Source: Tubiluchus corallicola
Taxonomy: Eukaryota > Animalia > Priapulida
Direction of reading: 5' to 3'
Assembly (NCBI GenBank): GCA_030141605.1
Contig: JAQGDQ010000843.1
Span: forward strand, 24,475-88,474
DNA length: 64,000 bases
The notes under the pieces are model-generated. The model saw only the letters and a program-made list of their open reading frames with translations. It was not told where the DNA came from and did not search any database. The first letter of the stretch is position 1. Every line of letters starts with the position of its first letter. The position numbers were made by a program, and so were the translations under genes. Of the stretch, positions 455-18,392 are shown piece after piece.

Positions 455-3400
455 CCTAACAAGACCTCGCATAAAGTACCCATAATTCTTTTGAAATTGT
501 TCCTTTACGTTCACCAAGTTCGTTTCACAGCAGGTACAAAGAACGCGGATTAGCTGGGTGTCATTCGTGGATGGTCCATGTACGGAATCATAAACTCGTC
601 TGGCCCAATAACTGTATATGTTTTTTGCCATTTCAACTACAAAATTAAACATGGATAAGTAAAAGTAACGTATGGAGTTGTAACGATTGATTGTGCGTTC
701 GATATTATAATACTATGAGTATTAAATTCAAATTCTTATTAAAGTTGGGTAAATCAGCTAGTTTAATTAAATGAAAGAATGCACTGCCGTATTGCTGATA
801 TATGTGTTTTAATTGTAGTGGACTATATTAAGTTGCGTATTGTTAGTGTGTTCAACCAGTCAAGATGGACGGAAATAAACGTGTAACACTATTGTCTCTA
901 CTATCTAGTTTACTGTTGTGAATAAATTTATAAATCGGTATTTTGTTAGTAAATTAATGGAGTTATCAGCTGAATTAGATTCAGTTGATAAATCTCATGC
1001 CTCCCTGATTTTCATAAGATAAATTTATACGGTTGACAGAGAAACTCATCCAGCTGATAAGTACGGATTTAATGCGACGCAAATTATTGCACATGTTAGA
1101 GAAATACATGTGTCTTGTCTAAGAGAAGACACTATTGTCTTGAATAGCTACATGCAGAGTTAAAGTTAATTAAGAGAAGGTCGGTAGCGATGCAGATGTC
1201 GCATAGAGGTGCCTTTATGATAGCAGCCAAGGTCTCTATCAGTGCTCAGCGACATTAGAGAGAGAAATCTGAAGATTTGCCGACGACGGAAAGAGGATCT
1301 CAAAGAGCGAAGGAACACCTTGCTGATTGTAAAATCAGAAATCTCATGGCAGGTGGTATTACCTGCCACAGGTGTTGCTGGATGTTACTATATGGTGCAA
1401 TCTTTTGCAAGGTCAGCTCTCCGAGATACAAACTCTAGTTTTAGACTAGACAGACACACATACGAGGGGTGACGTGAGTGACACATACACGCATGAGGAG
1501 CCGACACGCACAAGGAGTGACATGAGAGAGTCTGACAGAGATTGCTGCTGTAGTGTGTCCGAGACAGTCTTCTAGAAGAGAGGAACATCATTTGACACCA
1601 GTGTAGAGGAGTCTGCATCCTCAGCCATAGACTGAGCACTGGATCAACGAAAGTCTCGTTAAGCTATCTGGAGTTGACCAAGTGTAGGGGTACATTGGTC
1701 AATCCACAAGTTAAGTGGACTTAACATATTTGTATCTGAGAGTAACTCTGCATAACTGTAGTTTCACATTGTATTAAGCACCATAAGTGCAGCATACTGA
1801 ATCGTTGTCAATTAGAGTGAATGAGCACCTTCTCTGGAGCAATACACTAATTGTAAGCGCTCACCAGCGTATAAGGACAAATCTTGTAAAGCAAACCAGA
1901 TTAGATAATGTGTACTCTGTAATTGAATAAATTCAATTCACTGTGGTTGCGTAGATATCGAGTTCTTGTATGACTAAGAGCATTCAAAGTAAAGCAGCAC
2001 TAAATCCTAGATACGAACTTGAGAGATTCGCATTGTACTAATGAAAGCTCAATTGCAGGAGCTACGCTCGATAACTTGAGGGAAGAAGACCTCCACTCAC
2101 AACGCAAGGTCAAAGTGAAAGTCTTGAAGGACAGCATCATTGCCTGATAGACTGAACTAAAGCCCTCGGAGTCAGGTGACAGAATCACCTTATAGCGAAC
2201 GGGAAGCGAATCTAGATAATCAATATAAAATCTGCACAATCTATAAAATTAATTCATGATCACTCGATACGGCTAGATAAAACTATACGATCAATCTATC
2301 GAGAAAAAGGGTCGTGATAATCGCTTATGATGAAAACATGTTAACGAGTTCCATTTCTACCAGTTGACTACCTATCCGAGCCAAGATCAAATGCCGTAAT
2401 GCAGTAATAACAGCTTTATTTTTAGTTTTTTGATGCATTTCCTTTTCTTCCTTTGATTTACGTTTCCGTAGGTGATGTCATGCAATGGCGACTTCAGAAC
2501 GGAAAAAATAATCAAAAATTCCTTTTTATGCGAATACGATATATGCATCAGATTGCAGTAAATAATATGATTTTCAAGGCAGTTTTTCGCCTCAAACCTA
2601 CTTCAGGTACCCCTTCCTTGTCATTCTTAGAACGGAATGAAAATAGGCACTTTTATTTTCTTTTTACAGCTCAAGCTTGGAAGACTCATGAAATTTGGAA
2701 GGATGAGCACAAGCCACAAGTCATTTATTTCGTTACATAATCGTACTTAATCGTTACATTTAATGTGCTCAACACGTGACATTAATGTCAAACCACTGTC
2801 TTGTCATTTCTACCTACTTACCATATGTCAAAAGTGTTTCCTCGGCTAAGCAGGACAGGTCTGCTCCTTTAATTGCATGTTCGATTGGGCGTTTATTGTG
2901 CTCTTCCCATGCTGCGATGCATGCGCGTATGCGATCGTAGCTCCTGAAGGGAAAATATTCACCCAGCAAAGTCGGATACCATGAATTCACAAAATAATCG
3001 ATATCATTTTCCACCCTAGGAAGATCTGGCGGAGGAGGCTGCAAACAAAGAAGTTTTTTACATTGAAAAACGTTTTATGCAGACTTTCATCTTTCAAATG
3101 CAATCAAAGTTTGCGTATACAAACAATATGGACGGGAGAAAAACTAAAGTGGTGTTTTTAGGAGTAATTGAACTTGGCTAGGGCAGAACAGCTTTAGTAC
3201 TCTCTCAGTAAAAACCTTGGAAATCATTTTAATCAGCATTTGCTTTAAGTTGTGTGTTGTCTGCTCGCGCAAATTTTCTAATCACTATCCTATTAGGCCA
3301 AAAAAAGACAAGACATGCAATGCATTTCAGGCCATTCAAGCACAAGTGTGTTTTAAAGAGTCAAACATAATGCATAAAACATGGGCTTAACCTATAAGAA

Positions 3401-17300: not shown

Positions 17301-18392
17301 CACTATTATGTTTTTATAGGTTGTTTGATAATAAACAAATGGAAAAAATCGGGAGTTGGTTCCGGAAAAACGCTCGTCAGGGGACACCGTTGCCCAAGCG
17401 TAAATTATAAGTATGCTAGCTATATCCACCGTTGAACGGGCTATCAAACTATTACCAACACCACACATGGCCCGTTCCTGTTCGCCAGAAATAAGACGTA
17501 TAAGTTTAGCAAGTTTTTGCAAAAATTGGTCAAAAAAGGGCGTTTTGGAGTTTTTTGCCCCCTTCGACCTAGTGGCCCGATTCGAAAAACTTGGAATTGT
17601 AGACTTGAATTTTATATATAAACAAATATATAAACCCCATAACGCCGACATTATTATATATGATGTATTACATTTTTGCAAAACGGATTGAATAACTCAA
17701 AAAGTAAAAAAGTAAATCATGAATATCTGTCACTTGTACCAGCTACTACACACACAATTATAGTGCTGTCACTTACGTCTTTATACAGCTCATCGAAAGC
17801 TTTCTGCATTTCCTGTAATTGATAGTTGGACCTGCTTGTCAGCAGGTTTCTGATTGCATCTTCATCAGTTCCTATAAATTCACCAATTCATATTAATTAT
17901 TATTTTATTGCTATTTTTCTGATTGCATCTTCATCAGTTCCTATAAATTCACCAATTCATATTAATTATTATTTTATTGCTATTTTTCTGTTTCTTCTGC
18001 GGTAACTTTATAAAGTTACTTTCTCTCTCTCTCTCACTCTCTCTCTCTCTCTTGCTCTCGCTCTCTTTCTGTCTCTCTCTCTCTTTCTCTCTCTCTCTCT
18101 CTCTCTCTCTCACTCACTCGCTTTTTCTTTATTATCTGACTGCATGATTACTGATGCCTATATCTGTTATTTAGACTGAATTGTCTTTATTTCCGTCTGT
18201 CTGCTATAAGTTTAATTTCTATTTAGAGATTAGGGTATATTCAAATGTATTAAACAACTCACCAGGTCCTTTTATTGCTTTCATCACGTATTTTGCATCC
18301 GCTATCGAATCAAAATTTTCAGCTGGCTTCACACTTCCTTCTGGTCCGCGCTGCACAAAAATTAGGTTTATGTTCCTCGGATTAGGTTCCAT
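11340..18392 (-). CDS. Divergent annexin, tandem copy 2 (8 coding exons, 321 aa)
   Basis: Exons 18392-18263, 17871-17777, 15948-15823, 15360-15276, 14429-14344, 13941-13728, 12420-12239, 11387-11340 (DDTSGDYRLFLLNLI*, a typical annexin C-terminus). Total 966 nt, open frame, all GT-AG. The ATG has ataATGG context in both copies. Confidence 0.92.
11428..11898. repeat. (CT)n microsatellite in the last annexin intron (paralogous tract ends at window positions 1-25)
   Basis: Direct reading; the same downstream flank ttgtttttcaagtttaaattg occurs at both places. Confidence 0.97.

Follow-up and report, generated by a model that had tools for sequence, protein, structure and literature searches.

Annexins bind calcium and membranes and are usually regarded as conserved proteins of membrane repair and trafficking. 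Exons that differ more than the introns between them are a pattern known from snake venom PLA2 genes. In the present study, we analyzed a stretch of 64,000 nucleotides (contig JAQGDQ010000843.1, positions 24,475 to 88,474; hereafter the window, in whose coordinates all positions are given) that carries two tandem annexin genes, copies A and B, with exons approximately twice as divergent as the introns. Snake three-finger toxin genes (PMC2474615) resemble copies A and B in that the introns are alike, short exon segments differ sharply, and the fold is kept. However, the toxins are secreted with signal peptides and copies A and B are leaderless annexins; the likeness is one of pattern, not of family. 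Genes of the major histocompatibility complex (MHC), immunoglobulin V regions, RHCE/RHD, and the reactive centers of protease inhibitors (PMC3966226) similarly combine a homogenized background with divergent patches. Unlike copies A and B, these MHC-type families, shaped by conversion plus selection, encode surfaces for extracellular recognition whose partners are known.

Clustered duplication and divergence of annexins, as at this locus, are described for the alpha-giardins of diplomonads (PMC4863580) and for plant Ann2 (PMC4884362, PMC9847905). Nonsynonymous-to-synonymous ratios (Ka/Ks) above 1 were reported for plant Ann2 pairs as whole-gene ratios (PMC4884362, PMC9847905). The word "selection" is absent from the excerpt of the diplomonad paper (PMC4863580), and that of PMC11195529 holds no selection analysis. 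As excerpted, neither the diplomonad nor the plant cases include intron-calibrated, surface-biased hypervariability among tandem animal copies. Invertebrate annexins have been little studied (PMC12249911), and the literature searched, with subscription papers and supplements outside its scope, contained no report of a hypervariable array of animal annexins. Since the evolutionary pattern is well known from other families (toxins and immune genes), the novelty is the annexin scaffold.

We consider it probable that copies A and B represent a tandem-amplified, divergent annexin subfamily in which positive selection acts on a concave, partner-binding surface and gene conversion acts on the introns. 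Both have the four-repeat core common to the annexin family (PF00191; PDB annexins A8 [1w3w], A3 [1axn], A5, and B12). However, they differ from canonical annexins in their low identity (22-33%), the loss of the repeat III AB loop, a four-residue insertion in the repeat I DE loop, and a cysteine in place of the repeat IV arginine. The paralogues also combine 28% residue divergence with 7% silent divergence. They would be named as invertebrate group B annexins if the host is an invertebrate, as the richness in introns and the composition of the window suggest.

A self-comparison of the window revealed one duplicated unit, with copy A at 11..8172 and copy B at about 11885-18866; homology stops ~0.6 kb upstream of the ATG. 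The copies are arranged in tandem on the minus strand, all introns are GT-AG, and both frames are open. Copy A has seven coding exons within the window (307 codons), and its final exon lies off the left end. Copy B is complete, with eight coding exons for 321 amino acids. The two annexin paralogues proposed in the first-pass annotation were confirmed as intact in both splice sites and frames. The features are as follows:

7462..7591, minus strand: copy A coding exon 1, from the ATG; the first 14 codons may be intronic, given an AG at 7551-7550
6969..7063, minus strand: copy A exon 2, repeat I helices B-C; the copy B counterpart matches Pfam PF00191
4944..5069, minus strand: copy A exon 3, repeat I helices D-E with the 4-residue insertion, and repeat II helix A; hypervariable
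4400..4484, minus strand: copy A exon 4, repeat II AB loop and helices B-C
3418..3503, minus strand: copy A exon 5, repeat II helices D-E
2822..3038, minus strand: copy A exon 6, II-III linker and repeat III with the AB loop deleted; the least variable exon
455..636, minus strand: copy A exon 7, repeat IV; PF00191, E 4.9e-8
18263..18392, minus strand: copy B coding exon 1
17872..17940, minus strand: acceptor duplication in copy B, a perfect 69-base tandem with a second exon 2 acceptor and the first 20 exon bases
17777..17871, minus strand: copy B exon 2; PF00191, E 5e-6
15823..15948, minus strand: copy B exon 3
15276..15360, minus strand: copy B exon 4
14344..14429, minus strand: copy B exon 5
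13728..13941, minus strand: copy B exon 6
12239..12420, minus strand: copy B exon 7; PF00191, E 1.4e-9
11340..11387, minus strand: copy B last coding exon, with the stop

The seven intron positions presumably match those of vertebrate annexins. The first 14 codons (7550-7591 and 18351-18392) close with a pyrimidine-rich AG, and the two copies differ there by one base. They are uncertain because this acceptor-like AG comes right after them; they may be intronic, in which case the true start exon would lie upstream, within the conserved blocks 8017-8172 and 18685-18866. The results are independent of these codons. The activity of copy B is uncertain because the first of its two exon 2 acceptors would truncate the protein: when the upstream acceptor is chosen, translation stops after 56 codons.

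Copies A and B differed in residue at 85 of 306 aligned codons (72.2% identity) and by one codon indel, which reproduced an earlier hand count of ~85 differences and ~72% identity. In nucleotides, 148 of 918 coding positions differed (16.1%; 61, 48, and 39 at codon positions 1, 2, and 3). Exon 3 (5069-4944 vs 15948-15823) had 23 differences in 126 bases, with one purely synonymous codon (GAC/GAT) and the whole-codon swaps CGG/ATA and TAC/GCA, and exon 2 (7063-6969 vs 17871-17777) had 13 in 95, one of them synonymous; both counts agreed with the first-pass annotation. The difference-free intron stretch that it noted beside exon 3 belongs to an identical run of 136 bases (5199-5064), about 130 of which are intronic. 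Its description of the introns as near-identical held for intron 2 (60/1788, 3.4%), but not for introns 3 (6.3%), 4 (10.4%), and 5 (12.8%). The middle of intron 6 (about 760-2350 vs 12560-13470) was unalignable, with separate insertions in each copy. Public contigs pile up on this part of copy B, which suggests a dispersed repeat.

When the alignable introns were pooled, 309 of 4425 bases differed (7.0%), in contrast to 16.1% in exons (Fisher p 8e-17). The divergence of introns 4-6 was 10.9%, and the 60 intron bases flanking the exons on each side differed at 63 of 832 positions. Four-fold sites differed at intron level (6/84, 7%), whereas replacement sites differed at 16.5%. Two or three changes were present in 38 of the 99 changed codons, and two serine codons switched between AGY and TCN.

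From this excess of replacements over intron and silent divergence, we infer selection. Site model M2a was favored over M1a (likelihood ratio test [LRT] 49.5, p 2e-11), with a neutral distance of 0.081 and ~15% of codons assigned to a class of very high rate. The LRT was 34.8 when multi-base events were fixed at 3.5% and 16.8 (p 2e-4) at 10%; among intron mismatches, runs of two or more bases made up 32 of 259 (12%). The signal appears when neutral divergence is taken from four-fold sites, the site model (d about 0.08), or the introns (7%). We also performed a neutral simulation in which intron-derived mismatch patterns were laid on the coding sequence (3000 runs per intron set). The expected number of residue changes was 36 with all introns or 56 with introns 4-6, with maxima of 62 and 81, whereas 85 were observed. 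Codons with synonymous changes only were as expected (13 observed, 10-14 expected). Paired differences inside codons numbered 26, 16, and 18 against 10, 6.2, and 7.9 expected; adjacent-base pairs across the codon border were not enriched (10 vs 7.9). No frameshifting exon indel was found, whereas introns 2-5 predict about 10. Moreover, the variable sites avoided columns conserved in canonical annexins (19/83 vs 77/203, p 0.019).

Part of the intron identity is likely due to gene conversion. Intron 2 of copy A (5070..6968, minus strand) was 96.6% identical to that of copy B (15949-17776) and contained perfect tracts of 272, 229, 136, and 111 bases, which are likely conversion tracts; 2000 shuffles gave longest identical runs with a mean of 88 and a maximum of 211 bases, compared with 272 observed. 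Silent changes were concentrated within two codons of replacements (12/127 vs 1/68, p 0.026). Silent changes raised next to selected sites are a described pattern of conversion opposed by selection (PMC3966226). Because silent sites match the introns, conversion adds to selection and is not an alternative to it. GC-biased conversion was ruled out (strong/weak differences 48 vs 42; GC content at third codon positions equal). Long GA microsatellites occur in intron 1 of both copies (7143-7330 and 18016-18130) and in the last intron (11425-11906); they are possible promoters of recombination or conversion. Intron 2 of both copies also holds a repeat element (6481-6715 and 17355-17589) that recurs inverted at 20912-21140 with 71% identity.

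Four public sequencing runs from two studies matched part of copy B (shares 0.19-0.38). We compared 20 contig records over 171 bases that span the border between intron 2 and exon 3. Each run of sample X1/X3 contributed five records that reached the exon 3 boundary, with at least four versions among them. These versions part company at or just inside the splice boundary; in two records, which follow the intron (2-3 differences in 43-45 bases), divergence begins precisely at the splice site. The 30-base consensus of these two records (agreement 0.87; hand-read) was 11 bases and 4 of 10 residues away from A, and 13 bases and 6 of 10 residues away from B; it retained Cys77 and residues 83-85, which include the calcium-cap aspartate. 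One further record had an additional codon within the DE loop of repeat I. In another, codon 105 was a one-step intermediate between A and B, which is more readily explained by successive changes than by one multi-base event. Run X4, from another study, carried the copy A version of exon 3. These additional versions and X4 show that the exon-intron contrast is family-wide and that the multi-copy family is real. A collapsed-assembly artefact was ruled out, as independent runs pair the same intron with different exons and X4 has the exon 3 of copy A. Further copies of the annexin family suggested in the first-pass annotation occur in the public runs; tblastn found no annexin exon in the window to the right of 18.4 kb. 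No RNA-labelled public run with this stretch was listed, and run X6 (RNA by guess) matched only the intron 2 repeat; these runs give no evidence on expression.

The same data bear on whether A and B are highly divergent alleles of one locus, kept by balancing selection of the self/non-self type and placed one after the other during assembly. Very polymorphic invertebrates can reach an intron divergence of 3-11%. However, at least four exon 3 versions in one sample, the unalignable middle of intron 6, and upstream regions that are unrelated beyond about 0.6 kb make this very unlikely.

Pfam Annexin (PF00191) matched four of the 10 pieces scanned, in repeats I, II, and IV. Exon 6 (repeat III) had no Pfam match, and exon 7 matched PDB annexins. 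A profile search returned 42 annexins, of which one was close: P0029 (338 amino acids, a single open frame in a 1185-base Logan contig), with 45% identity to copy B and 39% to copy A compared with 22-33% for the others. P0029 shares with A and B the insertion of four residues in repeat I, the missing repeat III AB loop, and the repeat IV loop, and it is their sister with 100/100 support; it differs in its N-terminus and in keeping the repeat IV arginine. Its continuous frame agrees with the modelled exon junctions of A and B. The predicted model, which is of P0029 and not of A or B, has an annexin fold (predicted local distance difference test score 78; template modeling score 0.72-0.79 to PDB annexins, E 2e-15). 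Four annexin repeats of about 70 residues with five helices each were therefore borne out by Pfam, the full-length alignment, and this model. Neither exon 6 nor exon 7, used singly in word-based homologue searches, gave a match. The sole match of a representative search, P0003, was rejected as a tandem-repeat translation, and the metagenome loci L001 and L002 were rejected since only a short motif matched at 35%. Exon 7 of both copies has three cysteines at the end of helix IVB (A residues 280-283), one of which replaces the repeat IV arginine conserved in all other aligned annexins, P0029 included.

A type II calcium site comprises a K-G-X-G-T loop and an acidic cap about 40 residues on (PMC3795353, PMC3588008). 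In the sequence alignment, the repeat I loop is intact in both copies with cap Asp84, and the repeat II loop is intact in A and has a Gly-to-Ala change in B, with cap Asp158. The repeat IV loop has His and Ser substitutions, and its cap is kept in B. The calcium loop of repeat III (the AB loop) is deleted in both copies; among group B annexins, this is the calcium site most often lost (PMC3795353).

Copy A is more derived than copy B: its branch length is 0.31 vs 0.11, and it has 12 sites in common with the outgroup, compared with 24 for copy B (p 0.065). This longer branch, the background omega (dN/dS) near 1 in the site model, and the duplicated acceptor of copy B would all fit relaxed or dying duplicates, in which both copies drift neutrally and neutral divergence is under-estimated. 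However, drift cannot outpace the introns, and at most 81 changes were simulated on the fastest introns, compared with the 85 observed. Stop codons are absent, frameshifts are missing where about 10 were expected, and the AB loops and caps are kept. We therefore regard relaxed duplicates as improbable.

No hydrophobic signal or transmembrane stretch was found (best 19-residue hydropathy 0.7), although the true N-terminus is uncertain. Judged from the sequence, the missing hydrophobic leader argues against a classical secretion or venom role. A secreted effector or venom component that diversifies against prey or predator targets would account for the exon-over-intron pattern as in snake toxin genes (PMC2474615), and annexins occur in parasite secretions (PMC10559496). 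However, besides the missing signal and membrane segment, the membrane-binding loops are conserved as in an ordinary docking annexin, and such a role appears highly improbable.

The convex face of annexins bears the sites for calcium and lipid, and the concave face bears helix C and the N-terminus (PMC3588008). The concave face is involved in forming protein complexes (PMC12249911). We assigned sites to either face by a topology rule applied to the helices of the model of P0029, the 45%-identical relative, without coordinates. Concave sites accounted for 61 of 85 replacements, 29 of 36 multi-hit sites, and 16 of 17 hot codons, compared with 180 of all 292 sites (Fisher p 0.025, 0.016, and 0.004, respectively). 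In the AB loops, 4 of 23 positions changed, two of them in the repeat III remnant. Repeat I was the most changed (29/75) and repeat III the least (10/69). On this model-based assignment, the distribution is suggestive of hot sites on the surface facing away from the membrane.

Several results weigh against positive selection on a concave face. The whole-gene test proposed in the first-pass annotation gave no signal: the Nei-Gojobori method estimated nonsynonymous divergence (dN) at 0.187 and synonymous divergence (dS) at 0.164, a ratio of 1.14 (bootstrap confidence interval 0.79-1.72), and model M0 gave an omega of 1.18 (p 0.49). Neither is above 1 in a distinguishable manner, and the Nei-Gojobori dS is inflated because so many of the changed codons carry two or three changes. 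The diversifying selection claimed for this multi-copy family is supported at ~15% of codons, but the whole-gene ratio shows nothing of it. The background codon class has an omega near 1, which indicates weak purifying selection between A and B outside the frame. Only two full sequences were compared, so site classes are poorly identified. One class of cross-codon pairs was elevated (11 vs 6.2), and the clustering of silent changes was not significant within one codon (p 0.14). Tested by circular shifts, the concave excess was only marginal (0.02-0.07), and some variable sites, in the repeat I DE loop, lie on the convex face; the bias is suggestive because the rule was applied after the pattern had been noticed and without coordinates. 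Sample X1/X3 may be pooled, and its versions need not then be separate loci. Copy B may be mis-spliced. Furthermore, a neutral model with free multi-base mutation was not rejected (LRT 4.95, p 0.08); it required 29% multi-base events and a neutral distance of 0.18, about twice that of the introns.

This last result would fit a conversion mosaic without ongoing positive selection, in which the exons are short tracts from older paralogues, the introns have been homogenized, and multi-base swaps mimic selection. The perfect intron tracts, the silent changes near replacements, and the two serine switches are consistent with a mosaic, as are three residues of the distant P0029 that are present in a third exon 3 version (hand-read) and absent from A and B. 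However, old exons should have saturated silent sites, and only 6 of 84 four-fold sites differ. The clusters of changes respect the reading frame, and multi-base runs reach only 12% in introns. Moreover, the exon patches would have to be shielded from erasure by conversion, which implies selection. We consider a mosaic without ongoing selection unlikely.

Under positive selection with intron conversion, the leaderless annexin would dock on membranes through the predicted calcium-binding loops of repeats I, II, and IV. The variable concave face would then be presented to a fast-changing partner, selection would fix new specificities, and gene conversion would level the introns between copies. 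As a guess, the partner may be a foreign molecule that changes fast and belongs to a conflict of the host with microbes or parasites. By analogy, our first choice for the partner class is host-microbe conflict and the second is gamete recognition; no result here points to the identity of the partner. An immune role is likewise a guess, and a venom or secretory role finds no support. We speculate, with considerable doubt, that in one animal lineage the annexin may serve as a polymorphic recognition protein: a conserved membrane clamp gated by calcium, with a hypervariable concave face and a repertoire of amplified copies reshuffled by conversion, acting as a membrane sensor of innate immunity or self/non-self. 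If positive selection is confirmed, a fixed membrane-docking face and an opposite face changing at the rate of an arms race would point to an unrecognized role of annexins in biological conflict. The array names residues that are open to testing. It would also illustrate clearly how whole-gene dN/dS can overlook selection that becomes visible with introns and site models.

Right of 19 kb, open reading frame and tblastn checks found no annexin or other clear gene in the window. A single degenerate copy resembling 5S ribosomal RNA lies at 52459-52577 on the plus strand (Rfam RF00001, 95 bits) and is probably a pseudogene or the head of a short interspersed element. Minisatellite arrays, with units of ~19, 113, and 54 bases among them, occupy 27117-28259, 30201-31098, 45065-45797, 48700-49674, 56540-57535, and 58280-60005. 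Two distant inverted repeat pairs (34737-35201 vs 62901-63362, 93%; 43141-43594 vs 61456-61937, 77%) are likely dispersed transposon copies.

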